This document shows, piece after piece, positions 2,232 through 57,512 of a stretch of 64,000 nucleotides of DNA. Position numbers and translations under genes: made by a program. The notes under the pieces are model-generated. The model was not told the DNA's origin. It saw only the letters and a list, made by a program, of their open reading frames with translations, and did not search any database. The stretch comes from Octopus sinensis (taxonomy: Eukaryota). The stretch's first letter is position 1, and every line of letters starts with the position of its first letter. The stretch covers positions 33,232,001 to 33,296,000 of the forward strand of contig NC_043003.1 of the NCBI RefSeq assembly GCF_006345805.1, written 5' to 3'.

Positions 2232-3044
2232 GCATATATTTCGCAAGTATATGGAACATTTAAGAGAAAGATTATATAATAGAAACACGAAACGGTGAAC
2301 AAGTAATAAAGGGAAATAACTTTATACAAGGCGTTCAAAAGAGTATATAAGGCATTCAAAATGATGAAAGCAAATAACAAAAGACTAGAATATACAAATC
2401 CTAGATCCTATAAAATACATATTAATAAAGATAAAGGAACCCGAAGACTTAAATGAAAAGTGATGCGGAGGAGATTTAGGAATAAAGAATTATATACGTT
2501 GATATCATGAGGTTGACAATTTAAATGTAGAAACTATTAATCGATACACAACACTCCTATGAAACAGGAATGCACCTTTGAAAGAAAAGCTGATGGTGAT
2601 GATCGTGGCTGTCTATCTTCTGATTGAACCATGGAAATTATATCTTCATTAAATCAAAAGCGTTTTAGTTTACTTTGATGTATTGTGATACTGGAGTAAA
2701 ATAAATAATAAAAACGGAGAGCTTCTTACAATGAGAAAAGGGAAAGTTAACACACCTTTATATATTTCGGGCACCAAAGACTCCTCGGCAAAGTGAACGG
2801 CTTGAAGAAGTGTAAGATTTGCGTAGATCCTACAATGTTGATTATTAAGGGTTTCACTTACGATGGGCGTTTGTGCTTGAAATATATAACATTTTAAGAA
2901 GCCCTTCGTTTTCATTATTTGTTATGTTTTTAGTTTTCCCAAATTTGTGATAATTTCTGTCACTTGCGAACCCTGCCAGATGCTGTATCTATTCTGCCAA
3001 TGCAACGCTTTGAATTTGCGATTGTACAATTTTTAGCGATCTGT

Positions 3045-3165
3045 AAGGGATGACAGGCAAAGTTGCCCTCGGCAGGATTTGAACTCAGAGTAGATAGAAT
3101 CGGAACAAATACAAGGCACTTTCCCTAACACTCTAACAATTCTGTCAGTTCGCTTCCTAGCAAAG
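3045..3165 (-). mobile_element. SINE family B fragment
   Basis: Reverse complement of GGCAAAGTTGCCCTCGGCAGGATTTGAACTCAG matches the SINE-B body. Confidence 0.65.
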
Positions 3166-3207
3166 AAAATATCAATGATAACGTAAAATAAGCAACAAAA
3201 AAAAGCC

Positions 3208-3425
3208 AGCAAGCTCTCAGAATCGTTAGTACGCCGAGAAAAATGCTTAGCGGCATTTCATCCGTCTTCACATTCTCAGTTCAAATTCCGCCAAGGTCGA
3301 TTTTGGCTTTCATCCTTTCGGGCATCGAGAAAATGAGTACCTGTTGAATACTGGGTTCGATGTAATCTACTTCCCACTCCCCAGAAATTGCTGGCCTTGT
3401 GTCAACATTTGAAACCAATATAATA
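3208..3425 (+). mobile_element. SINE family B, short-tail form
   Basis: CAGAATCGTTAG..AAATGCTTAGCGGCATTTC..GTTCAAATTCCGCCAAGGTCGA..CTTTCATCCTTTCGGG, then tail GCTGGCCTTGTGTCAACATTTGAAACCAATAT. Confidence 0.8.
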
Positions 3426-7427: not shown

Positions 7428-7740
7428 GTTTAGCCGCTTGTGGGTAGTAAAGAAATAGGTATTTCGTCTGAAGTTCAAATTCCGCTGAGGTCGACTTTGC
7501 CTTTCATCTTTTCGGAGTCGATAAATTACGAACTGGATCGATCTAATCGACTGGCCTCCTCCCCAAAAATTTCGAGCATTGTGCCTAGAGTAGGAAGGAA
7601 ACGTTAGCTCGCTGGGCGAAATGGTTAGCGTTATTTCGTCTATCTTTATGTTCTGAAGTTCAAATTCTGCCGAGGTCGACTTCGCTTTTCATCCATTCGG
7701 GGTCGATAAATTAAGTACTGGGGTCGATTTAATCGACTGG
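7428..7740 (+). mobile_element. Stacked SINE-B copies; a long-tail 3' end is joined at GGTATTTCGTC to another copy
   Basis: GTTTAGCCGCTTGTGGGTAGTAAAGAAATA|GGTATTTCGTCTG..GTTCAAATTCCGCTGAGGTCGAC, followed by a second SINE-B from ~7598. Confidence 0.8.
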
Positions 7741-8290
7741 TTATTCTATACTTTTGTAGAGTACACATTTATTATTCATAAACAAGAATTTTATTGATCG
7801 TGACTTCGAAGTTTCGAAGATAAGCCATCGTGGGACTGCGATGTATTGAAGTTAATTTTGGCTTTATATAGTCTCTGTTGAGCTAAATCCTTCCGTGCGT
7901 GTATAGGTTTAAGTTGATTGGTAAGTAATTTTTACGGTGGGTTAGAGGTATTTACGTAAATTTTTTATCGATTAAATTTGAATTTATATTATTCTTTAGA
8001 ATTTATTAATGTTTGTAGAACTTTGTAAGCTGGTGTGAATATTTAGGTGTAGCCCTATCGTGGGTCGGTATAGGATACATATTTATTTTTGCCTTGACTC
8101 GAATAATCCTTCGGTTTGACAGAGATCAAAAGTAATTTAGTATTTAAAAACTTAGTAATTGGTGGTAATTGGTGGTGTCAGATTTTTGTAATGGAAATTT
8201 GTAGGGGCTAACAACAGAGACTATATAAAGCCAAAATTGACTTCAATATATCGCAGTCCAACGATGACTTAACTGGCCAAAACCTCGAAA

Positions 8291-9057: not shown

Positions 9058-9702
<645 letters not shown>

Positions 9703-13230: not shown

Positions 13231-13777
13231 ATATATATTCATACATACATATGTATATATGTATATATATTCATACATACATATGTATATATTAAAGAAA
13301 AAAACATTAACAACATGATATCTAATATCCAGGACAACAGTAACACTGAATAGCAATATTAACAAATATTGTCGTATAGAATAGCAACAAATTCTTGAAC
13401 AACAATATTGCATTGTTACATACGAAGAGTCTCAGATACTGCAATGTGTATCATTGATATCGTTATATCTTTCAGGTTTGTTTATAATCGACGGAAATGG
13501 TGCTGCCATATATTACTAAAGACGTAAGGCGTTTGACGTTAAAATGCCAATTGTGGTTCACTACACAATGCAGTTAGTGAAATAATTGTTTCTACCACAA
13601 GTCTAGATTTCCATGCGTAGTGTTGTTAGTCTATTAAATCAACCCCAGTACACGATGAATGCTTTATGGATTTTCTAACAATGGAAGGAATACTTGATAT
13701 TAGTGATTTATGAACTCCAGAAACTGAAGAGCTACCTACTATTTCAGCAGTTATAGCAATAATGGTTTCAAATGTAT

Positions 13778-14170
13778 GCAAAAGTCTAGGAGTTTTAGGT
13801 GGAGAGGGTAAGTCGATTATATCGACTCCAATACTCGCGTGGTACGTTACTTTATCTGTCCCGTAGGAATAAAGGGCAAAGTTGACCCCGACAGAATTTT
13901 TAACTCAGGACATATGGAGCGAGAAGAAATACCCATTTCTTTACTTCCCACAAGGGGCTAAACACAGAGAGGACAAACAAGGACAGACAAGAACAGACAA
14001 AAGGATTAAGTCGATTATATCGACCCCAGTGCGTAACTGATACTTAATTTATCGACTCCGGAAGGATGAAAGGCAAAGTCGACCTCGGCGGAATTTGAAC
14101 TCAGAATATAACGACAGAAGAAATACCGCTAGGCTTTTGTCCGTAAACTATTCTGATAGCTCGTGGTCTT
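13778..14170 (-). mobile_element. Old SINE-B split by a younger long-tail SINE-B insertion (13934-14115) with a 12-bp TSD
   Basis: AGAAGAAATACC occurs at 13922-13933 and 14116-14127 (GGTATTTCTTCT on the minus strand). The inner part is close to consensus and the outer parts are diverged. Confidence 0.8.
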
Positions 14171-15151
14171 CAAATAGAATAATAATATTATCCATATTAT
14201 ATTTATAATTGATAAAATATTATGGCAGTATTTGTTTTTCTGACTGCCGCCATCTTTCTAGTTAGCCATTGAATACTTTAACCGCCATTGAATACTTTTT
14301 TTCATGGATTCCAGTGTCTCTCTGCCGCCATCTAATTCCATTATTATGCATTTAAATTGGGAACTTGAGTCATAGGGAATCTTCTCATTAGCTCCTCACA
14401 CAACCATGGACGCCTCACCTATGGATCTTTTGCAGTTACTCTCTTGATAGAGCTTGGTCTTTGTGAGCCGTTGGTCTTCTAGGATTCCTCCTCTCAGCAT
14501 CGATGTAAGAAACATCGTTGTCTCAGTTGTGCTCTTTCCACAACTCTTCGCAATCCATCATGCTGTTGCTGCATGACTTCGTTGTATCCCTGGCAGAGTG
14601 ACTGAACGGGTACTATGGCTTGCCAAAGGGCAGCCTCTAACTAGGCAGGGCACAGTCGTCACTCCGTGGGGTATTTTCAAATACCGGCATACCTATTAAA
14701 TATTACTTGCAGTAAATATGTTGATCACAAATTTAAGTATTATTGTTTATGCTTCTAAAATTTTTGTTCCGTTTACATTTGTTTCTTTTTTCTATAATAG
14801 CCTGGATATGATCTTGTCCATTTACAAAAGTTATTTCCTTCATTTCTAATTTTCCAAGTACGGCAAAGTCTGTGATTCGTTTATAAAGTCATTTTGAGGC
14901 AGAACATATGAGATGAGTTGTCTTCCCTAGTTACTGACACAATTAGAATAATAATCGGCATTGATTCATATTAGTTTCTCCCCAATGCATAATTATTTCT
15001 AGATCGAATTATAAATGTCCCTTGCATTAAATATATTAACACTGATTTAACTATCGATTTTTGTGGGGATATCTACGATATAAAATATTAAATTAACTTT
15101 ACACACCCTAATATTTTTATTATTTACAATGATTTGTTAATTCTAGAAGAT

Positions 15152-15226
15152 GGAGATACGTGGCTTAGTGGTTTAGGTGTTCGAATCGTGATCATAAGGT
15201 CGTGAGTTCGTTTCCATGACTGGGAA
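15152..15226 (+). mobile_element. tRNA-derived SINE head or tRNA pseudogene
   Basis: GTGGCTTAGTGG (A-box) and GAGTTCGTTTCC (B-box) at tRNA-like spacing, with no intact cloverleaf. Confidence 0.5.
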
Positions 15227-17802
15227 TAAGGTATTTCGTTTCCTGTAGCTTCAACTCATTTAGTGGGAAAAAAATGCTGGTGTAGCTCTCTCTTTTCCTC
15301 TCTATGAGCTGGATGTTACGTGGGGCGATACTGACGAGGCCTAGAGGGTGTGTATGTCTGCATAGGTACTTGAAACGAATGCCCGATGCACACAACCAAT
15401 CTCTAAAGGATCAGGAGAGATAGGGTTTGTTCGTAAGGAACATTGTTAAAAAGCTCGGGAATAACGGAATGAGATTGTGAGACAAATATATTTCATTCAG
15501 CGTCATCAATACTTAGAGGTAATTAGCTTCATCCGAGGGTCGAGAACGTATTTGATAGTGTGACAGTCTTTTCTTATGAATCAATCGACGCTAGCACCTT
15601 AAAGTTGTTAATAAAGATTTATTTTCATAGTTTTGATAAGGGATGAATACAAATAACAAAACGCATAAAAAAATATAAATGCATAATTAATTTATAAAAT
15701 GTAAATATAATAACTGAAACATCAGCAAAAATTGCAAGATGAAAAAGATAATAAAAAGAAAGGCAAAACGAATAGCAACAAAATAACATAAAAATACAAG
15801 GCAAATACAAACCATAAAATGAAGCTATATTTACTAAAAAAATAAATCCAACTTTGAAACATAAAGAAAAACACCCAAAGTATTGATTATTTAACAAATT
15901 AATTGCTTATTCTAAGTCGTAGTCTTTCGTTGAAACTAAGAAGTGAATAATTGTCTTAGTTTCATGTTCTTGTTAAGCTCCAGTGCAAGCCTGATTGGTT
16001 TGAATAATGAACAGACGGCATTCCCATTGTGACCATCACGCCTTTTCAAGGATATGCACTATGTTTTCTCATGTGACTTGTATTATTTAAGGCAGAAGAG
16101 ACATGCAAATTTGGTAGGTAGTCTTAGGTTTTTGACCTACTGGTTAGAGACTCATTCGTTTAACAAGTGTGTATGATGCGCTATAGACCAAGGTTAAAAC
16201 TATTTTTCTTTGTTTTCTGGCATTCACTCCAGGTAAATGCCATAAAATAATGAATCTAATCTGCGGGATAAAACCTGCAATACATATTAGTGTTAGAATC
16301 TGGATCCTTTGTCGGAGTTAACCTAAACATATAGTGAAAATATAGACTACATTCCCAACTTCTTAGAAAGTCTTGAAGTCTGCAAAACATTTATAGATTA
16401 GTTATATCAATGTCTCATTTGTTAAACAGCAAAATTCACATCCAGATAACCATTTGCACATGTGAGGACACGGATGAGAGTTAATCGTCATAGAAACAGT
16501 GAGTCACTTGTAATTAACAGAGAAAGTTTCGCAAATGAAATAACAGAATGGTGCTGTGTGTCTTCGAATATTATGGATATTCAGCAGCTGACGCTTGTTT
16601 TTCTATGTCTTACTGTAGAAAATGAAGCAACTCACAACCTCAAATCACGGTTCACGCAATCATAAAAATAAACAGTTTTCATATGATTCAATATGAATGC
16701 TAAAGCGTGTATATAAAAAAAATAGTTCTCTTTACTACTCAGGCATTTCCAATATATAAATAAATAAATAAATAAAATAGATAAAACGAATAGACAAATA
16801 AATAAATAAATAAATAAAATAACTAAAAGATTAGACTGATATTTACAAAAATAAAAACAAGGTTGTGGTCTCTTACAGCATAACTGCTTGCATGAAAAAT
16901 TACATAAGATTATATAACACCAATATTCATGGAGCGAGCAAAAAGGCCGAATAGAAGCGATAAAGCGGTAAGGAACAAGATTATAATCCCAAGACAATTT
17001 CTGCTTGTAGAAAATCCTTATCTACGACGCCACTATCACAGACAGAAAACAACAACAGCAATTTCAGATATGATATTGATTTAACAGAAAACCATGTAAA
17101 AACGGCATTTACCAACTTACTGCTCAAAAATAAACAAGCATAACTTATTTTTTCTTTTCTATATACAGACGAAGAAGAATATATGAGAACCCACATTAGA
17201 ATCATGAAAATGTGTATATCGCATCGAACTACAGGAACGAGGGAGATACATCACTTTTCTTTTGTGAAGATATTCGATCTAGTCGACCCCTCAACAGGAG
17301 CTCGTATGTGATGTCCACCTGCTGTCATAGGCGAAAATATATTACCGATCAACTATAAAATTTTCGATAACTCACGTGGAGGGGAAAAATTGGTCATGCA
17401 TCACGTGTTTTGCATTTTCAGTCCTTTATCTGGTTTTCCTAGGTTGTGGTTGTATCGTAGCTACTCGGATACATACCGGAACTTGTGATATGAATTTACT
17501 TACATTGCTATATACAGGTACATTCAGATTATAAAACTTAGTATACCGATATGTGATAGAAAGGTGTATAGTTTTGGTATAGAATGAAAATTGCGAGAGC
17601 ACATTGCCAGTATTTGACTTCCAGAGCTTCAAACTTTGTGAACGTCTATGAGTTCATTCAACAACAATCGTTATGATACCAGCAACAAATATCTCATATA
17701 CATATATGTATATATGTATGTACGCATGTAAGTATACATGCATGTATGCATATATGTATATATATGTCTGTATAAGTCTATATATCCATTTAACTATTTA
17801 TG

Positions 17803-17920
17803 TATGAGCGTAGTCACGAAACGTAAAAGACTTTTTCATTTCCCTGAGCGTCAAACTAATACACGTGCTTGTTGTTCATACACATGTCTTCGAGTTTTGT
17901 TTTTCTATAAATTTCAACTA
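17803..17920 (+). mobile_element. PLE pLTR-like terminal fragment
   Basis: GAGCGTAGTCACGAAACGTAAAAGACTTTTTCATTTCCCTGAGCGTCAAACTAATACA..TAAATTTCAACTATATA, followed by (TA)n. Confidence 0.75.
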
Positions 17921-17955
17921 TATATATTATATATATATATGTATGTATATATATA

Positions 17956-17998
<43 letters not shown>

Positions 17999-18063
17999 AT
18001 ATATTATATATATATATTATATATATATATATATGCATATATGTATGCATGTATGTGTGTCTG

Positions 18064-18095
<32 letters not shown>

Positions 18096-19711
18096 CACAC
18101 ACACATATATATCCTCGCATGCATAACATGTATTTATGACCATCAAATTCGCTGAGGATCAGCATCTGTAGTTGTCGACCTTTTAATGACAGGACTTTGT
18201 AACGGACAGAAGCAAAAGAAGAACGCGGTTTCGCGAGTGACGGAGGATGAGAACTGACACTTCATTGCAGACGTGTGTAATAGCCCGGACCCGGCATCAG
18301 TAGCAATCAACACCATGTTCAGGATGAAGGAGACCCATCGGGCAAGAATGATGACTCCAGAAAAATGGTATATCATTTCATCTAGATGTAGGTGACTTCC
18401 AGAAATTTCCTCTGTCTTTAATACAACCGCCTTAATTCGCGTGTGTGCAAAGCTATCACTAACCGTGTCTAATCGTGGAGACACCAATTTAGTAACGCAA
18501 AATTTTGGCTAACTTGAGAAGTTATGTACTAACAACGAAGCCTCATTGGCCACTGAACGCTTAATAATAAATGGCCTCGGTGGTAGAGGTGTGTTTGCAC
18601 GAAAGGATACACATCATATTTTGTATGCAAGTGAAGGAGATCTTAAGCTCTTTTTTTTTCAAAAAATGTATATACCTGTGTTCATGGGAAAATGTTTATC
18701 ATTTAATTACTTTAATTTAATTTCGAGAAATTTAGCATTAACAGAGAAACGTTGTGTATATTAGATCATATTACGGACGGAGCAGCTAATTTAAAGATAT
18801 AATCACTAGAGAACAAACCCGAGACCCTTTCATTCACTCCGTTAACTAGGTTCTTAAACACTTATGTAGCATGGCCCGGTGTTAATGTAGATGAGCGTCT
18901 GTTTGAGCTTGTGATATGGTTTGAATGAGGAAATTCTATTGTCATATTCAGGACGTTAACTATGGTTCAAGTTCAAGAATCGTTTGGGTCAAATCAGTCG
19001 ACCAAGATTGAACATTAACCAAGCGGTAAGCACTTTCAGTTGTGTATTATGTCTTTGAAATATCAGAGAAATATGTAGCTGAATTCAGTGCTATGTTTAA
19101 TAAATCTCTGGACATCGATGGATAAAAGTCAACAACATCAAAGTGAAAATATCTGGTCCCATACACACCGTCACTGCCGTTGTACATTGAAATTTCTTCT
19201 CCAGTTCTACAGCAAAGGTCGTAGTTAGAAGCTTTACCCTAGTAGATATTAATATTCCTATGTATCGGTTAGCTGCAATACCAATCTTCTGCCTTGGTAG
19301 CAGAATTCAACTCAGACCTATAACGTGCTTATGTGATTAGTGTTAAGTATTATCATTCAGATATTATTATTATGGAAAATGTCCCACGAATATGCCATGG
19401 TGGTATTTACAGTGACGATGGTTACGGTAGATGTTTTGCTTAACTCCATTTACTTACCCTCTTTATCTCCAGTACACTATCACTATTCTGACGTGAGATC
19501 CTTCCAGTGGTACGATCAGCAAAGCCCCCTGCTGGTCATCAGATGTTTTGAGGCACTTCCTCTAAACTGTTCATCTAATCTTTATAGCCATACGTCGGTC
19601 TGACTGATAAACATTGCTCATACTGTCGTGTATTATACACTATTTGGGGAGGGCAGGCGACATCTACGGACTTGCATATACATATATGTATATATTCACA
19701 ATTACAATACA

Positions 19712-20045
19712 GATGTGACTATGTGATTATTGGGTTTGAATCCCAAACGTATGGCTCACAGTTCATTCACAATGCGTTCCACACCTTGGGCAAATGTCTT
19801 CTATTAAAGTCCGGACCGGCCAAAGACTTGTGAGTGAAAAGCGAAAGACGAGCCAGTCCCATATACGCATGTGAATTTCTATGTGTGAGCGTGTGTGTAT
19901 GTGTGTATGCGCGCGCACGTTTGTTCTATACTACCACTTGCTAACCGGAATTTGTTTGTCCCTTTAACTTAAGCGGTTCACCTCCCTCCAAAAGCGATTG
20001 AAGAAATACCTTAATCGAACGATTGAAGCAAGTAAAACTTAAAGG
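19712..20045 (+). mobile_element. Degraded SINE family A
   Basis: CACCTTGGGCAAATGTCTTCTA..CCAAAGACTTGTGAGTG..TAACTTAAGCGGTTC..ATTGAAGCAAGTAAAA. Confidence 0.6.
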
Positions 20046-20046
20046 A

Positions 20047-20119
<73 letters not shown>

Positions 20120-20354
20120 TATATATATGTATGTATATATATATGTGTGTGTGTGTGTGCGTGTGTGAATATTTATAAATAAGGATAAGATCGATATTTA
20201 AATATCGATCTATCAAGTGGCCATCATGGGAATAAAAACCTTACAAATGTAATAATTATTTAAAATTATAAATTAGGGTATCTGAGGGATACAACAACGC
20301 TGAAATAGCAGTCAAAATCTGACCCTAAAGCCACATTAAATATTCATATAGCAC

Positions 20355-20761
20355 TAGGAGAGTAGCACTACCTCCTCAGGGCACTTGATGTAAGTCTCCC
20401 TGTTGAGTATGAGGTTGTGTGAGAAGATTAATGGAGGCATAACGTCACCATCACTAGTAATCACTTCAAACACTATGATGTTGATTGGATGTTTGATTTT
20501 TATCACTCCCGGTACATGTTCTCAGATTGACATGCAAACACTCTGAAATATTCCTATTGGGGCTTCCGGTACGAATGCCAAGCTGTACAACATGTCGTTT
20601 CCAAATTTCTAGCAGAGGGAATTGCGTCATGGTGTTGTTTTTCTCACAGACGGTGCCCAACTGACCCTACTACACTGCGTAGTCGACAAAATCATAATCA
20701 AACAATATGCATGCGCGAAATTAAAAATAGAGAATGGCCACGAGTTACCCATTGCACCCTG
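20355..20761 (-). mobile_element. Internally deleted Tc1/mariner-superfamily transposon (maT/DD37D-like)
   Basis: Terminus TA|CAGGGTGCAATGGGTAA at 20763-20745. N-terminal WKRHVVQLGIRTGSPNRNISECLHVNLRT is fused to catalytic-region KIKHPINIIVFEVITSDGDVMPPLIF..RETYIKC.EEVVL. Confidence 0.65.
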
Positions 20762-21544
20762 TATATATATATGTATATATATTGTAGTAATAGCACAGGA
20801 ATGCAAGAAAATCCTCACCATGTACACGGAGACAAATCACAGAACATACTTTAGACAACCAGTGTAATACACCAAATTCGATGTGGACATAAAATTCATA
20901 AGCTTCAAAATGCCACCCGTTCCATCGGCAATTACTCTTAGGTTGAGTACACCTATACAACAAATAGCTTTTGCAACGGATTATAACACACTACGCAAGC
21001 TATAATTGAATAGAAAAAAAGTAATTGACAGTGCTACAATTTTATGTAGAATTTTACAACGAAGGAAAATAATGAAGGAAACTTTACTAGAAGCAAAATA
21101 TAAACCGAAAGTCAACACACGATGTCGATCATGGAATCTACCAGGTTTCAACATTCTATAATTTTTTTAAAATATGGCGTTGCTTTTTTTTTCTCCTTTA
21201 TAACTGCATTTACATGGTTGTTGGTGACTTACAGTACAGTGTGCAAACAACATGCTCTCATTGTAACTCTAATGCAAGATGTGGAGGAAAATCTTAGAAT
21301 GACGATAGTAATGCTTTTGCGATATCTGTCCCTGCTCTTTGCGTTCTGCTTTTAAAACAATGAAAAATTGATGCTGTGTAGAGAGGAGACCTTACCTACT
21401 GAGTCACTGCTAGTCTTCTTCAAATAATCTTGTCCAGACCAGCAGCTGTATGTGAATACTGAATGACATGGCGTTACATATAAACACACACACTCACACA
21501 CACAAATACACGCGTATATATAGACCCACAGATAGGTAGGTAGG

Positions 21545-21616
<72 letters not shown>

Positions 21617-21823
21617 CCCTTTGATCCTAAATTAGCTTAGGTAGTTGCTAAGCGTTTGGGAGATGCATGTACTCTCAGCGAAACTGACAAGCAGAATTAA
21701 TGGATTACAGTGTCACAAATCATTGAATCACAAATAATATCGAGTCAACGGCGTTGTACACACTTTCTGTCTGTCCAAATTGGCTCAATTCGAGTCTATT
21801 ATGACGGTATCGCTTCATTCTGC

Positions 21824-22055
21824 AAGGCGGCGATTTGGCAGAAACGTTAGCACGCCGGGCGAAATGCTTAGCGGTATTTCGTCTGCGCTACGTTGTGAGT
21901 TCAAATTCCGCCGAGGTCGACTTTGCCTTTCATCCTTTCGGGGTCGATAAATTAAATACCAGTTACGCACTGGGGTCGATGTAATCGACTTAATACCTAT
22001 GTCTGTCCTTGTTTGTGCCCTCTGTGTTTAGCCCCTTGTGAGTAATAAAGAAATA
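21824..22055 (+). mobile_element. SINE family B, full-length long-tail form with 18-bp TSD
   Basis: Complete head (AAGGCGGCG..TGGCAGAAACGTTAGC..GAGTTCAAATTCC) to tail ..AGCCCCTTGTGAGTAATAAAGAAATA. It is flanked by GGTATCGCTTCATTCTGC (21806-21823) and GGTATCGCTTCACTCTGC (22056-22073). Confidence 0.92.
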
Positions 22056-22174
22056 GGTATCGCTTCACTCTGCGAAATCGAAACCCAAAAGTTCCGGTTA
22101 AAGTTATAATGTTGAGTTCATAATTACTTATGGCTTTTAAGGTTCCGCCAAAACTTTGCCCAGTTCAACACTTG

Positions 22175-28158: not shown

Positions 28159-29518
28159 TATATGTGTATTAATATATCAAATTCCATTTCCTCAGGTTTT
28201 GATTTGCAGAAAAAAACGTTACTGAGTAAAGGTTAAGCAAACAATTTGTACCGACTTCAGATATATCGTATTTCGGAATTATAATTTTATATAAAATTTT
28301 AGATAAATTAAATCTGTAAATATTCATTTTGTACATTCCTGAAAATTGAACCACTCAAGGGCATCAAAATATCACCGAATAATATTTGTACTAGTAACTT
28401 ATATTTTCCAAATAAAAAGTATTTTGTACTTATAGGTTAACAGATCGAAGTATTTATGCATTTTATATCTATATGCCAACATAAGCTGATATGATGAGAA
28501 ATACATGTTAAACTTCCAGTGTGATTTCAAAGATATTGGTACCGAATTTCTACTAATGAAGAAAACAAATAATCTAAGGAATATTGGATTAATGAATACT
28601 GGGGACTCGAGGAGTCAACGAAAGAGTTTATAAAACCTTTATGAATTTATCAAAGAAAACAAAATAAAAAATCACAACAATTGTAAATTACAAGCAACAA
28701 ATGGAAATAGAAGGTTAATAGATAAGATTTAGTTTTCTATATCAGTAAAACATTGCATTCGGTGAAGCATTACTGAATGTATTCTTGTGTGAAAGAGAGA
28801 ATTATTAAACAAAGCCAACTACATAGATATTACTTTGCCATCAATGAACCAACCAGAAAAGTAGAAAGTGAATAAGTTGGTAACATGAAAAGTTTAAAAT
28901 ATATATTAGCGAATGCCTCACTTGTCAAGGCTAACAAATATAAAGAAGAATGATAACTTTTCAAGAAAACAAGCGTAAATTGTCGAATATTTGACAAGAA
29001 ATAATGCGCTGTCGAAATAATTAGTGTTAGCAAAAGGTATATAAGAAACTAAACCACAATTTTACGTTAACTACAAAGTATAAAATTCTTGAGTATTATT
29101 CCGAGTGAACAGGGCACGACGTAAGAGAGAGACAGGTATTTTTGCCAGATTATGGCCTAACAAGCACATAGTTCATATTAGCAAACATTATAATATTCAT
29201 ATAACCTTGAAGACATAGGATCAATGGTAGAGATACAACATTCTTTGTGTAGATTACCATGTATTATTCACAGAAGACTGACATAAACGGAAACTTAAGA
29301 ATATGATGACATGAATGACTAATCTAAGGAAATATCTACGAATTTAACGAAGAATTCCAGTACAGACTCCTTACAGTCTGACATGGCTTTCTTCTGAAAG
29401 ACACTTTATAATGCTCATTATAATAAACAATCAACCTTGAGGCTTCAGCGTCTTTAGTTGTCGGTTTCTGAATTTAATATACCTTGTTGTATTGTGGAAT
29501 CAATGCTAAAGTTCTCCT

Positions 29519-29737: not shown

Positions 29738-30307
29738 TAAAGTTCTCTTATTTTACACATTTTAACTACAAAATTCTTATCTACTATATCATATTATTTT
29801 TCTTTTAGGGATTTCTTTTCATACTGGTACAATGACACATGCTTCATCCATTTAAAATTTTTCTTTTCTTTGATACTTCCATCGCTAATTAAGTAACAAG
29901 TGCACCTTTAAAGTAAGAAACTATTGGAAGTATTTTTGTGTCTATTTTCGAGGATTACCGTTTCCTATTTTAAATTTTGTACTTGTGTATATTCTCTGAG
30001 TGGTCTGATTTCGTTTTATTATTATGCAAGTAACTATGAAGTAATACTCCTTTTCACTTTTTAATCCTTGTCGACAGTACATATATGGTTCGGATTATTC
30101 TAATAATATTGATCTTTGCACGAAGACTAAAATGGTTATATTTGCGGTTATGCTGATGATTTGATTTCATCGTTCAGCTTTCCCGCTGGATATTCTTTTG
30201 TTGTTCCATGGGAGAATATATCATTATTGGTTATTAAACCTAAGCCTAACCCTAACACAGCTAACAAGAATCGTTGTATTCAAAATTTTATTTTCTTATA
30301 CACATAT

Positions 30308-32358: not shown

Positions 32359-32845
32359 AGACGTCGCACAGTATACAATATCGTGAGTCTATTGATTGAA
32401 GATAATGCGTCTACCTACCTGGGGTTTGTACTATTTGTGAAGACGAGTACCTCATATAGACTACTTTACGCAATATGCCTGCAGTTCCTAGGCAACGCCG
32501 ACTTAGTGTACTTCTAATGTTTTCTGATGTTTCTTCAGATTAGGTGGTATTGAACCCAATGCTCCGATGACAATAGGGATAACTTTTATGCTTGACTCTC
32601 GTAGCTGCCACACCTTAGCGATCTCAATTCTGAAGTCTCCATATTTATCAACTTTTTCTCTTTCTTTCGTGATGATGTGTTGATCTCCTAGCACTGCCAT
32701 ATCAATTATTATACACTCTTGCTTGTTCCTCCTAAAGGTTACTATATCCGGCCTTTGGTGCTGTAACACTTTGTCTGTCTGGCAATCAAAGTCCCAGAGA
32801 ATTTTTGCCTTCCCCTTTTCGTCCATTACCTTTTCCAGTTTTAAT
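32359..32845 (-). mobile_element. 5'-truncated R4/Dong-clade LINE (restriction-like endonuclease domain plus 3' UTR) in (TAA)n
   Basis: ORF 32503-32826 reads KILWDFDCQTDKVLQHQRPDIV..CIIIDMAV..KEREKVDKY..IPIVIGALG, then frameshifted KSAL-LGTAGILRKV. This is a PD-(D/E)xK RLE pattern, with TAA repeats at both junctions. Confidence 0.85.
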
Positions 32846-32860
32846 ATTATTATTATTATT

Positions 32861-33332
32861 GAGTGAGAAAGCAGTGCATGCCATCAAAGTGACACTGGGG
32901 TACAAATATACGAAGCCCAGTATACCCATCATGACTACCCGTCTGATAAGGGTACACCAGGCACATGCATCACAACCATATGTGCGCGACATGGTGATCT
33001 CATAACAAGATAAACAGCGCATGACCTGGTTGGGTAACCCATCCTACTCAAAAGGTCCCTGATTAAGGGTTGTTTAAGGATGTTGAATGAAACACCCATG
33101 TTTCCAGAGGTGAATCATTCAAACCCCAAAGAATCCCTCTCAACACATGGCTATGATGCTCCCCCACTACTTCTACTCGTGATCAGAGATGCACATATCG
33201 TCAGCCACTAAGGGACATATTCAACTGGTTACGGTCAAACAACTGACAAGCAAATCTGTGGTATTGAGCAGAATATTTGCTGTAGCCCATCTTTTATACC
33301 AAGACAAAACAATGTACATGATAACACTTCCA

Positions 33333-39397: not shown

Positions 39398-39862
39398 TCC
39401 CCTATTATAGGTTATTTTAGGTTAATTTGTTTTTAGTTTAGAGTACCAAGTATATATTTCTAGTTTTATAGTTTAGGCTTTAATTATAGTTAGTATTTAA
39501 TTGGTATTTCTTTGTTTTGTATTTAATTAATATTTTATTGAGTGTGGGAATGAATAATAGTGTATATATCGAGTTTGTACGTAAGTATATGTATGTGTGA
39601 GTGTGTATTTGGTGTGTATTGTGTATGAAAGGGGTTTTATCTTTATCTTTTTATTTGTATGTATGGACTTCATTATCATGATTAGTTTAATAAGTATTTT
39701 GCATGAAGGTATGGGTGTGTATGTAGGTGTGCGTGTGTACAAGTGTAAGTATAGATGCGGTAGTGTATGAGTGCTATGTAATTGAGTGTAATTATTTATG
39801 CAATTGTATACATGCAAGTTTTGAATGTCTGTGTGATTGCACCCGTCTGCGTGTACACACTC

Positions 39863-39905
<43 letters not shown>

Positions 39906-42125
39906 ATATATATATATTAATATCTATTTGAGTTTTAGTTTTTTATGGTTTTTTTAAAGAATTTGTAGAAAGTTTTGTATATTCCATTCATATTATGTGT
40001 AGAAATGTTGTTTTCTTTTGTATGTTTATGTATGTGTGAATGTGTGTGCGTGTGCGTTTTTGCTTGTATCGAGTTTTGTACGTATGTATTTGTATGTGTG
40101 AGTGAGTATATGGTTATGTTTGAGGGTGTGTGTATATATGTGTGTGTATTGTGTGTATTGTGTAGGGGTTGTATCTTTATATTATTACTTGTATGTATGG
40201 ATTTTATTTATCATGATTATTTTAATAAGAATTTGTATGTAGGTATGGGTGTGTATGTATGTGTGAGTGTGTACAAGTGTAAGTGTAGATGTGGGAGTGT
40301 ATGAGTGCTATGTAATTGGGTGTGATTATTTATGCACTTGTATACATGTAAGTTTTGAATGTGCGTGTGATTGCACCCATCTGCGTGTACACACTCTTTT
40401 ATATATATTTTAATATATATATATATGAGTTTTCGTTTATCATGGTCGTTTTATTAAAGTTTGTTTGTATCGAGATTTGTACGTATGTATATGTATGTGA
40501 GTGTGTATATGGTTATGTTTGTGGGTGTGTGTATATATGTGTGGTGTATTGTGTGTATTGTGTTAGGGGTTGTATAGTATATTTATACTTGTATGTATGG
40601 ATTTCATTCATAAATGATATATAAATTAATAAAATTAATAGCCCCCTATTAAAGGTTACTGTAGATTAATTTGTTTTTAGTTTAGAGTACCATATATATA
40701 TATTTTTAGTTATATAGTTTAGACTTTAATTATAGTTAATATTTAATTGGTATTTCTTTGTTTTGTATTTACTTAATATTTTATTGAGTGTGTGAATGAA
40801 TATTAGTTTATATATCGAGTTTGTACGTATGTATATGTATGTGTGAGTGTGTATATGGTTATGTTTGAGGGTGTGTGTATATATGTGTGTGTATTTGTGT
40901 GTATTGTGTATGAAAGGGGTTTTATCTTTATCTTAATATTTGTATGTATAGACTTCATTATCATGATTAGTTTAATAAGTATTTTGTATGTAGGTATGGG
41001 TGTGTATGTATGTGTGCGTGTGTACAAGTGTAAGTATAGATGCGCTAGTGTATGAGTGCTATGTAATGAGTGTGATTATTTATGTACTTGTATACATGCA
41101 AGTTTTGAATGTCCGGTGTGATTGCACCCGTCTGCGTGTACACACTCATTTTTTTTTATATATATATTAATATCTATATGAGTTTTCGTTTTTTATGGTT
41201 TTTTTAAAGAATTTGTAGAAAGTTTTGTATATCCATTCATAATTTTTTAATTTACGTTTGTCTACTACGCGCTAAGAATTTTATATTCCATTCATAATTT
41301 TAAAGACGCTGTTTTACGCAGCGCTAATAATTTTTATATGTTCGGTTCCATGGTAACGCAATTTTTGTTTATTGTAATGACGGATAAAGTTATTCACTTC
41401 AAAATTTGATACTGATTAGAAGGTATGTATATTTTTCTCTTTGTTAATCTTGTTACTTATGATAATCTGATTTCTTATGGAGTATTTTATATATCGTATT
41501 TGTGTAGAGATGTTGTTTTCTTTTGTATGTTTATGTATGTGTGAATTTGTGTGCGTGTGCGTATTTGATTGTATCGAGTTTTGTACGTATTATTTGTATG
41601 TATGAGTGTGTATATGGTTATGTTTGTGGGTGTGTGTATATATGTGTGTGTATTTATGTGTATTGTGTAATGGGTTGTATCTTTATATTTATACTTGTAT
41701 GTATGGATTTTATTTATCATGATTATTTTACTAAGAATTTTTGTATGTAGGTATGGGTGTGTATGTATGTGTGAGAGTGTACAAGTGTAAGTGTAGATGT
41801 GGGTGTGTATGAGTGCTATGTAATTGGGTGTTGATTATTTATGCACTTGTATTATGTAAGTTTTGAATGTGCGTGTGATTGCACCGTCTGCGTGTACACA
41901 CTCTTTTATATATATATTAATATATATGAGTTTTCATTTTTCATGGTCGTTTTATTAAAGTTTGTTTGTATCGGGACTTGTACGTATGTATATGTATGTG
42001 TGAGTGTGTATATGGTTATGTTTGTGGGTGTGTGTATATATGTGTGTGTGTATTCGTGTGTATTGTGTTAGGGTTTGTAAGTTATATTTATACTTGAATG
42101 TATGGATTTCATTTCCATTCATAAT
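39398..42125. repeat. Higher-order TG-rich tandem repeat
   Basis: Two blocks start CCCCTATTA (39398 and 40642). A ~400-500-bp unit beginning TATCGAG..TTGTACGTA recurs at ~39566, 40066, 40468 (partial), 40813, 41571 and 41968 (partial). Confidence 0.85.
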
Positions 42126-45705: not shown

Positions 45706-46269
45706 ATATAGTAAAAATAATTAAAAGGGCGGGCAACAGGCTGCTTCGCCGCATACCGAAGGAATTAGAAATGGCAGTCAAAGACTGTTTTTTCCATTTT
45801 CTACAAACCCTGCGATTCACATACGCAAAATCGGAGAAGCAAATAAACGGAAACAATCTCTTACCGTCAATGGTGAACATGTTTCTAGATCACAGGCTAG
45901 AAATTGCCTGATTTCCTTCGTCAACACCATACTCGATAGATTTACCAAATGCCACAAGCCTTCACCTCTGACCAAGCGCCGGTCAGAGGTGAAGGCTTGT
46001 GGCATTTGGTAAATCTATCGAGTATGGTGTTGACGAAGGAAATCAGGCAATTTCTAGCCTGTGATCTAGAAACATGTTCACCATTGACGGTAAGAGATTG
46101 TTTTCGTTTATTTGCTATTCCGATTTTGCGTATGTGAATCGCAGGGTTTGTCGTATATGGAACCTCCACTTGTAGAAATGGAAAAAACAGTCTTTGACTG
46201 CCATTTCTAATTCCTTCGGTATGCGGCGAAGCAGCCTGTTACCCGCCCTTTTAATTATTTTTACTATAT
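45706..46269. repeat. ~560-bp near-perfect palindrome (arms ~267/289 bp, 7-nt loop AAGCGCC at 45974-45980)
   Basis: The arms are reverse complements apart from a few substitutions, a 1-nt indel and a ~22-nt extra segment in the right arm (~46150-46172). Mirror ORFs at 45817-46005(-) and 45949-46137(+) confirm this. Confidence 0.97.
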
Positions 46270-48635: not shown

Positions 48636-49125
48636 TGAGATAGATTCCCCGCTAGTCTTCTTAAGGAATGTAGGCACCAACTTGCAATTCCTCTGACCAA
48701 CCTCTGGAGAAATTTTTTAGACTCTGGTTTTATACCGAAACAGCTCCTATTCCAATCGGTCATCCCGGTTTTCAAACAGGGAAACAGATCCCCCGCAGTC
48801 AATTATCACCCAATCTCACTCACCTCCCACATCATTAAAGTGTTTGAAAGAGTGGTAAGATCAAGGGTAGCTGGCTTCCTGGAAATCCATAAACTTCTAA
48901 ATGCAAATCATCATGGCTTTCACCCTGGCAGGGACTATCTAACACATCTCTTACACCACATTGAGGATATACATAAAGCCTTGGGAACAGGTTCGAAATC
49001 TAATGTCATATATCTTGACTTCAGTAAAGCGTTCGACATGTTTGACCATAATATCTTACTCTGAAATTTGGCAAATGTTGGAATCCGTGGAAATCTTCTA
49101 CATTGGATGGAGTATTTCCTGGCGA
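48636..49125 (+). pseudogene. CR1/L2-group LINE reverse transcriptase fragment
   Basis: LLKECRHQLAIPLTNLW..VIPVFKQGNRSPAVNYHPISLTSHIIKVFERVV..HHGFHPGR..VIYLDFSKAFDMFDHNILL*..GIRGNLLHWMEYFL. Confidence 0.85.
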
Positions 49126-56525: not shown

Positions 56526-56764
<239 letters not shown>

Positions 56765-57511
56765 GTCACGCCTCTTTCCTTCAAACGGGAAGGAAGAGCT
56801 ATTTTCATCATCCTTGTGGCTATGGCGAAAGAATGTATCTGGTGGACGCGTCTGAAAGGATTGGAGACAAACACTTTCCACTCTGGTCAATCTCTCATCA
56901 ACTTCTTCAAGTACCACTTGAAAAGGAAAGTGAGAGTAGAGAGGCAAGTTTTGTCTAGCGAATGTTTTAAAAAAAGATGGGTGAATGTAGCAAGGATGGC
57001 ACGTATGAATGACGAAGCCACCTTGAGCATAATCCTATGAACCCAGAAATTGAAAACAGAGGGTTACCCACTTGCAAACAAATGTGGTAACATATAACAA
57101 TATTGACCAAGGTTACCGTGGTCTTTTTCGTAGGCTTTTCTTCCCACGGATAAACCTTACTTGCTTTCCCCTTTACACCATATATCATAACACTGTGATA
57201 CACGATCCCTATTGATCGTTCTTTTTTTCCTCTTCCCCTTTTTTTCCCCTTTTTTCTTCTTTTTTCATTTCTCTTTCCTTTTGTTCCTTTTCCTTTTTTT
57301 TTTCTTTCTATTCTTTTTATTTTATTCAATTTTTTTGTTGTTTTTTTGTTTTTTTTGTTCTTTTCTTCCCTGTTACGATCCCTCTTGATCGAAAACCTAC
57401 GCCACCCCCTTTTTTTTCTTTTGTTTTTTGTTCTCTTCATCCCCCAAAAGAAAAGCTCTACCTTGTAACTTGTCCCATCTGTGTGCAGCCCTGTGTGGCC
57501 AATAAAGAAAC

Positions 57512-57512
<1 letters not shown>
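56765..57512 (+). mobile_element. 5'-truncated Tx1/L1-like LINE 3' end within a (TCTA)n array
   Basis: Open frame to TGA at 57040: EGRAIFIILVAMAKECIWWTRLKGL..SLINFFKYHLKRKVRVERQVLSSECFKKRWV, fitting the Tx1/L1 ORF2 C-terminal AK..IW..R...F...W pattern. A T-rich 3' UTR and AATAAAGAAACT are followed by TATC repeats. Confidence 0.75.

Follow-up and report, generated by a model that had tools for sequence, protein, structure and literature searches.

The SINE and its target site

What decides where a SINE inserts is the question raised by a stretch of 64,000 nucleotides from Octopus sinensis (NC_043003.1, positions 33,232,001 to 33,296,000; hereafter the window), in which the long-tail copies of one SINE seem to stop before the same five letters. 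An ungapped scan of this 64-kb window with the last 30 nt of the long tail (threshold 26/30) found exactly three SINE tails, ending at 7457 (plus strand), 13934 (minus strand) and 22055 (plus strand), and in all three GGTAT comes next, as an earlier sequence-only reading had stated. GGTAT occurs at 102 sites on both strands of the window, or 0.0008 per strand-base, and the probability of finding it behind 3/3 tails by independent chance is about 5e-10. SINE heads account for about 3 of these 102 sites, and most older heads in the window carry no GGTAT reading.

The full-length copy at 21824..22055 (plus strand, 232 bp) served as the reference for all comparisons, its body reaching to about 21990 and being followed by the long tail (21991-22055). 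Pattern matching in its head found Pol III A-box-like (21836-21846) and B-box-like (21897-21908) motifs, using the consensus box patterns, with a spacing longer than in tRNA; neither Rfam nor ARAGORN made a tRNA call on this head, and the absence of a recognisable tRNA match is usual in diverged SINE heads. Between the two motifs lies a GGTAT of the head itself (21873..21877, plus strand), the homologous position of the nested insertions. The copy sits in unique DNA between the two copies of an 18-bp target-site duplication on the plus strand (21806..21823 and 22056..22073), which begins with GGTAT and is 17/18 identical (chance about 5e-7, allowing 5 nt of slack at both ends), and the same reading was thus right about this duplication. 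A conserved stem-loop was sought in the long tail, and 0 pairs were found (z 0.4 to 1.1 and -0.35).

In its traits the element is a SINE, being 232 bp long, non-coding, dispersed, abundant and flanked by target-site duplications, with about a dozen pieces within the window and 421,630, 175,733 and 405,295 matching contig records in three public contig sets. An autonomous self-inserting LINE of the Zepp type is ruled out, since 232 bp leaves no room for an ORF2 and the copies are dispersed. Ohshima and Okada reportedly described the octopus tRNA-derived SINEs OR1 and OR2 in 1994, a third family being OK, and the SINE of the window likely belongs to the same group of abundant octopus SINEs as OR1/OR2.

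Nested and composite copies

At 13934 one copy lies inside another. On the minus strand, a younger, 5'-truncated long-tail insert (13934..14115), in register with the head of its host, is bounded by two identical copies of a 12-bp duplication (5' copy 14116..14127, 3' copy 13922..13933), outside which stand the older host head (14128..14172, 67% alike to the 21824 head) and the host body with its short tail (13775..13921, body 74% alike to the 21824 copy), this tail being of the type found in the copies at 3203, 29520 and 58275. The insert is 91% alike to the 21824 copy in its body and 87% in its tail, and 74% alike to the host body; because of this unequal divergence (91% against 67-74%) a tandem duplication is rejected, and the 91% and 74% are not those of an equal-age dimer. 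The nesting is therefore real, and the sequence-only reading, which saw here a near-consensus copy splitting an older SINE, described it correctly. The same reading took a "non-consensus TTCT" within the 12-mer as a mark common to both duplicates; it is indeed common to both, but the deviation amounts to one base and is a recurring variant, since the TTCT letters form the majority in one loose-end class of runs X1 and X4.

We give almost no credence to the proposal that structure directs these insertions, in which an imperfect inverted repeat of the head, with GGTAT at the start of its 3' arm, would be extruded as a hairpin and nicked. As RNA the head forms a long hairpin (z -2.4, reached by 3/200 shuffles), but its DNA hairpin does not stand out from shuffled sequences (z -0.70), and neither of the two targets actually used folds (z 0.20 and 0.82), the one at 21806 lacking an inverted repeat; targeting by a DNA hairpin is accordingly rejected.

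The third tail belongs to a different arrangement. A 30-nt long-tail end (7428..7457), with neither head nor duplication upstream, is followed by a headless body that starts at GGTAT (7458..7597) and by a further SINE (7598..7770), joined head-to-tail and starting near the second junction site of the public contigs described below, all on the plus strand. A degraded SINE head upstream of 7428 was considered and rejected, its best score being matched by 475/2000 random window pieces, and a search for a flanking duplication around the tail found none. Since the 7458 body is 92% alike to the 21824 body, it is not older, and it probably formed the latter half of a composite that lost its 5' end; of the two long tails said to lie inside older copies, only that at 13934 is shown to do so. 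The 92% is compatible with an equal-age dimer, and the two SINE-joined tails are followed by bodies of different short-tail types. The bodies at 7458 and 7598 have in common, within one region, an additional A and a deletion, which hints at local duplication.

This hint, together with the abundance of SINEs (11.6% of the O. vulgaris genome; PMC13282606), could be taken to mean that the joins arose in the DNA itself, where very abundant SINE copies would undergo unequal recombination, gene conversion or tandem duplication. Such an origin gives no account of the 18-bp duplication in unique DNA (21806/22056), and at 13934, where the partners are 74% alike and the long tail is present in the insert only, both crossovers would be needed within the same 12 bp; we regard it as very improbable.

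A stronger rival starts from the RNA. GGTAT might be part of the transcript, either because the master is a composite in which a headless second monomer comes after the long-tail one or because Pol III reads through any copy into its GGTAT flank. An endonuclease of weak specificity would then nick many sites, of which only those pairing with GGUAU would prime reverse transcription, so that base pairing would choose the site and most tail-to-head joins would be copies of a dimeric master. Pol III terminates at runs of four T, and the 21824 copy has no such run before 22135, so its transcripts would include GGUAU. The arrangement at 7428, which lacks both a host head and a duplication and whose second body is young, fits a pre-formed composite, and dimeric SINEs are common (PMC10702118). 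A dimeric master does not fit 13934, where the insert is much younger than its host, whose tail is of another type, so that at least that join is an independent event.

Junctions in public contigs

Beyond the window, junctions were collected in contigs from three organism labels, leaving out the raw-read run X21, in which 16 of 12.9 million reads matched. Among the loose-end positions listed, the only one at the tail end lies directly after GGTAT (22060), with 671, 500 and 1204 contigs; in one contig the match stops at 22055. Agreement behind 22060 is 0.46, 0.42 and 0.42, to be compared with 0.76-0.78 for pure SINE ends and 0.38-0.39 for random flanks, and by simulation near 30-40% of the contigs ending in tail plus GGTAT go on into a SINE head, a figure estimated from a summary statistic for these contigs only, which composite copies would inflate; an estimated 60-70% run on into unrelated DNA. 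With that majority outside the family, and with 1/2 of the window copies that have a target duplication lying in unique DNA, the "safe-haven" strategy of self-targeting that had been proposed is unsupported; the target motif may just be most plentiful in SINE heads.

Among the 15 of 673 joints listed, the GGTAT class of tail-to-head joints comprises 45, 37 and 62 contigs, and a second class, joining the tail to head position 21840, comprises 7, 9 and 23; tandem joints are also found after bodies without the long tail (23, 26 and 34 contigs). No empty-site joint is present among these 15 of 673, which carries no weight either way. Because the second class exists, the targeting is a preference and not exclusive. 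The suggestion of site-specific insertion thus holds as a preference for GGTAT in three contig sets but not as an exclusive rule, and the adjacency of every long tail to GGTAT, true of the window, does not extend to the public contigs.

Two features of these junctions favour the pairing of read-through RNA or the copying of dimers: the majority sequence behind GGTAT is one head variant, identical in each of the three runs, and at the second junction the closing letters of the tail recur in the head site, as pairing would predict. Most older heads of the window, however, are without GGTAT, so that either model would have a single head variant prevail among the targets.

A LINE with the same tail

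At 56764..57512 (plus strand), inside a (TATC)n array, lies a 5'-truncated LINE of the L1/Tx1 group, in which the C-terminus of ORF2 (56765-57037, plus strand) is followed by a 3' UTR whose terminal ~50 nt match the long tail of the SINE. A second 5'-truncated copy, 88% alike over the aligned bases, occupies 9182..9644 (minus strand), likewise inside (TATC)n. The long tail is identical to the two LINE 3' ends at 38/47 and 30/40 positions (75-81%), and in each of 4 comparisons the score was reached by 0/2000 shuffles, so the SINE and the LINE have a 3' tail in common. RT and zf-RVT domains are found in relatives of this LINE piece, together with an APE-type endonuclease domain in the full-length ones, and the nearest solved relative is human L1 ORF2p. 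This domain build suggests a place in the L1 group, and the clade would be Tx1, although neither cluster names nor the atlas gave a clade name and no named Tx1 reference was returned. No locus in metagenome or viral contigs was confirmed by scans with the LINE protein, exact matches to the long-tail pattern were absent from viral, genome and metagenome contigs, and the exact SINE-body pattern had none in viral and genome contigs.

Both LINE copies (2/2) have (TATC)n on either side, and such arrays make up 1.05% of the window; the LINE lineage thus chooses its targets, which speaks against RNA pairing as the source of the preference. A LINE inserted at GGTAT was not found, the tail-sharing LINE of the window lying in (TATC)n only, and it is at best a relative of the element that mobilises the SINE. 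The link between the SINE tail and a target-specific class of LINE was missed in the sequence-only reading and is new here.

A plausible route of insertion

We lean towards the view that the SINE is moved by a target-preferring LINE of the L1/Tx1 type, whose insertion site happens to occur in the SINE promoter. An octopus SINE of the Pol III type would have taken over the terminal ~50 nt from a LINE of the L1/Tx1 group, as the observed homology of the tails suggests, and the ORF2 protein of that LINE would move it via target-primed reverse transcription. Integration would prefer C|GGTAT (top strand) and duplicate 12-18 bp starting at GGTAT, as in the two duplications observed; any motif longer than GGTAT is drawn post hoc from two targets. 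The preference itself is observed in three runs, and we infer that it originates with the endonuclease. As the target stands in the head between the A and the B box, other SINE copies would receive about a third of such ends, and the homologous target there may allow an in-register junction at the 5' end of the new cDNA. The product, as observed in the nesting at 13934, would consist of host head, new body, long tail and the rest of the host, thus resembling a dimer, and some composites would probably be copied onward.

Endonuclease targeting has strong rivals in the pairing of read-through RNA and the copying of pre-formed dimers; we hold the account based on them to be possible, though tentative, and endonuclease specificity and RNA pairing can act together. 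A bolder version, which we consider rather doubtful, is that the SINE homes into the promoter of its own family: a Tx1-type endonuclease, with a read-through RNA carrying the target, would cut older copies between A box and B box, and through in-register joining at the 5' side the truncated insert would receive the A box of its host. If so, new copies would regain a promoter, recycle old ones and time and again give rise to composite subfamilies, in several octopus genomes and at very high copy number.

Relation to known systems

Target-specific SINEs are rare in print. Kojima's criterion for them is that a single repeat type occupies over 20% of the flanks (PMC4494074). The closest precedent is the crocodilian SINEU, attributed to Tx1-Mar, of which 13-90% of copies flank the target (Kojima 2015, PMC4494074), and comparable target-choosing elements are known in other animals. 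SINEU resembles the octopus SINE in preferring another repeat, in being attributed to a Tx1-type LINE, in having two preferred target positions and in forming tandem insertions around a duplication, but differs in its snRNA-derived heads and unrelated Mariner target (PMC4494074), the octopus SINE having a head with Pol III box-like motifs and a target motif in the head of its own family. The evidence for the partner differs as well: SINEU and Tx1-Mar are linked by a common target and common heads (PMC4494074), whereas here the link is a common 3' end, and the tail-sharing LINE lies in (TATC)n instead of having the target of the SINE. Kibi and Koshi are Tx1-clade LINEs of microsatellites, and the octopus LINE, also in a microsatellite, has relatives with an APE-RT-zinc-finger build of the L1 group; their targets are (TC)n or (TTC)n (PMC4494074), and that of the octopus LINE is (TATC)n.

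Octopus SINEs make up about a tenth of the genome, and neither partner nor target is described in the octopus SINE literature searched. Given a Tx1-type tail and a fixed junction, the class of the partner could be named, and the many natural insertion events would help to tell endonuclease specificity apart from RNA-DNA pairing in target choice. The two features would also explain why these SINEs look like dimers and multimers, a source of confusion in repeat libraries and age estimates. Nested insertion into the same family recalls the Zepp and Zepp-like L1 elements of green algae (10.1101/2020.06.13.149070), but these are autonomous LINEs in centromeric clusters, whereas the octopus SINE is dispersed, non-autonomous and mostly inserted outside its family. 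Dimeric and tandem SINEs such as Alu and the Dip multimers of jerboa are likewise head-to-tail composites of related monomers (PMC10702118); in the octopus, by contrast, the second unit has its start at a constant position within the head and is once demonstrably older than the first.

GGTAT at the Ends of Long-Tail SINEs

A blastn search with the full-length long-tail SINE at 21824-22055 (+) detects about a dozen SINE pieces in the window, and when the final 30 nt of its long tail (21991-22055) are scanned without gaps, three SINE tails match at 26/30 or more, ending at 7457 (+), 13934 (-), and 22055 (+); the remaining matches of at least 20/30 are two LINE ends only. As the sequence-only reading had claimed, GGTAT directly follows all three tails on the 3′ side, and since the window holds 102 such sites on both strands, this is not attributable to chance. 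GGTAT also begins the 18-bp target-site duplication of the 21824 copy (21806-21823 / 22056-22073), which matches at 17/18 and lies in unique DNA, in agreement with the same reading. In an older short-tail copy, the 10-bp duplication (29507-29516 / about 29738-29747) does not start with GGTAT, a one-copy control suggesting that only long-tail copies show the preference.

Nested Insertion

The 5′-truncated long-tail SINE at 13934-14115 (-) is a nested insertion within an older SINE, with its 5′ junction in register with the consensus. It is flanked by two identical 12-mers (14116-14127 and 13922-13933), and its body is 91% alike to the 21824 copy, while the host head and body reach 67% and 74%; insert compared with host gives 74%, and tandem duplication is thereby ruled out. 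The non-consensus TTCT said to be common to both 12-mers amounts to one differing letter, and since the same letters are the majority of one class of loose ends (contigs continuing beyond their match to the 21824 region) in two runs, it lends modest support. The proposal that two tails lie inside older copies therefore stands for 13934 but is not borne out for 7428-7457 (+), where a 30-nt tail end precedes a headless body (7458-7597) that is 92% alike to the 21824 copy; no SINE head was found upstream of this tail (475/2000 random pieces score equally), nor any flanking duplication. This 7428 copy favors a different source of specificity, in which GGUAU is carried by the RNA, either because the master is composite or because Pol III reads through, and nicks are selected by pairing. 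Another SINE pair, 3032-3158 (-) and 3203-3420 (+), is arranged head to head with about 45 nt in between.

Long-Tail Ends in Public Contigs

Four of 24 listed public runs were aligned to 21625-22170, and three contig runs with three organism labels were used (421,630, 175,733, and 405,295 matching records). The raw-read run X21, whose species label is that of the best-matching run, was set aside, as only 16 of its 12.9 million reads matched this very high-copy repeat, making its label or filtering suspect. Seven scans of contig collections returned no loci: the exact tail in viral, genome, and metagenome contigs, the exact body in viral and genome contigs, and the LINE protein in metagenome and viral contigs. 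Summed depth over the long tail reaches 68-84% of the head peak, marking this tail as a major form, although depth is not copy number and old copies are under-represented at the 85% likeness threshold.

Among the six loose-end rows listed per contig run, with 1166 more lying beyond the listing, the sole loose end at the tail falls behind 22060, immediately 3′ of GGTAT (671, 500, and 1204 contigs), and its majority sequence is SINE head continuation. Agreement there is 0.46, 0.42, and 0.42; ends that are all SINE give 0.76-0.78, and random flanks 0.38-0.39. In a simple mixture simulation that leaves indels out, SINE continuations account for about 30-40%, so that most tail-plus-GGTAT contigs run into unrelated DNA. 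Head sites such as 21873-21877 make up about 3 of the 102 GGTAT sites in the window, and the SINE share thus exceeds expectation from the 5-mer alone. A longer motif common to the two targets, defined post hoc, occurs only three times, always at targets or heads, so a longer recognition site could account for the excess without any strategy. A safe-haven advantage is not needed. GGTAT targeting is real and extends beyond the three window copies, as a preference; the exclusive part of the proposed site-specific self-targeting does not hold.

Among the 15 of 673 joints listed (contigs linking two positions), tail plus GGTAT continues to 21886-21896 in 45, 37, and 62 contigs, and in 23, 26, and 34 contigs a further copy follows a body that lacks the long tail. 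A second fixed junction (22053/22055 to 21840, just inside the A-box-like motif) joins tail to head without GGTAT in 7, 9, and 23 contigs, and it likewise favors pairing by the RNA, as does the lack of a T4 before 22135 in the 21824 copy. One contig match ends at 22055. The window SINE copy at 7598-7770 begins at about the element position that corresponds to 21840.

Probable LINE Origin of the Tail and Proposed Mobilization

Two 5′-truncated LINE copies, 9182-9644 (-) and 56764-57512 (+), are 88% alike, and each has (TATC)n on both sides, arrays that make up 1.05% of the window. Their 3′ ends match the SINE long tail at 38/47 and 30/40, scores reached by 0/2000 shuffles in all four comparisons. 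A conserved stem-loop in the tail was looked for and not found. The piece 56765-57037 matches an Octopus bimaculoides UniRef entry (95% over 41% of length), and one relative comes from Argonauta hians; these matches mark the window as octopus-like DNA. Relatives of the coding end, at about 70%, carry RT and zf-RVT domains, and full-length ones, about 1145 aa long, also have a domain of the APE-type endonuclease kind, with human L1 ORF2p as nearest solved structure. Insertion inside microsatellites is described for Tx1-clade elements (PMC4494074), which suggests a putative Tx1 assignment; cluster-name and atlas look-ups gave no clade name. The LINE is itself a candidate microsatellite-specific L1/Tx1-group family in octopus. 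Its (TATC)n target differs from GGTAT, so the mobilizer is probably a related element.

We lean slightly toward mobilization by a target-preferring L1/Tx1-type ORF2, which would cut at GGTAT-type sites; the SINE head carries sites of this kind between the A-box-like and B-box-like motifs, and homology would line up the 5′ join, yielding dimer-like products. Selection of nicks by RNA pairing is the main alternative source of the specificity and the less likely one, and the two may act together. Composites of this kind are common in octopus sequence. DNA-level recombination fits poorly and is improbable; hairpin nicking, also a poor fit, is more improbable still.

The octopus SINE works like SINEU/Tx1-Mar (PMC4494074) and nests like Zepp (10.1101/2020.06.13.149070); it falls outside the SINEU type because a partner LINE with the same target was not found. 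No description of target preference, nesting, or a Tx1-type tail for octopus SINEs was found in the literature, including the accessible parts of these two sources and of PMC13282606, PMC8967140, PMC4758252, PMC3747384, PMC10702118, and PMC4824008; a composite consensus or target notes may already exist in Repbase, in Dfam, or in the Zenodo library that accompanies PMC13282606.

Open frames at 48639-49064 (+) and 32503-32883 (-) resemble, by eye, reverse transcriptase and restriction-like endonuclease pieces of other LINE families. The window also holds a near-perfect long inverted duplication at about 45740-46250, with core arms (45792-45973 and 45981-46162) 97% complementary and 7 nt apart, and a local duplication at about 39500-41250, with copies about 1250 bp apart and 93% alike over 85 nt.
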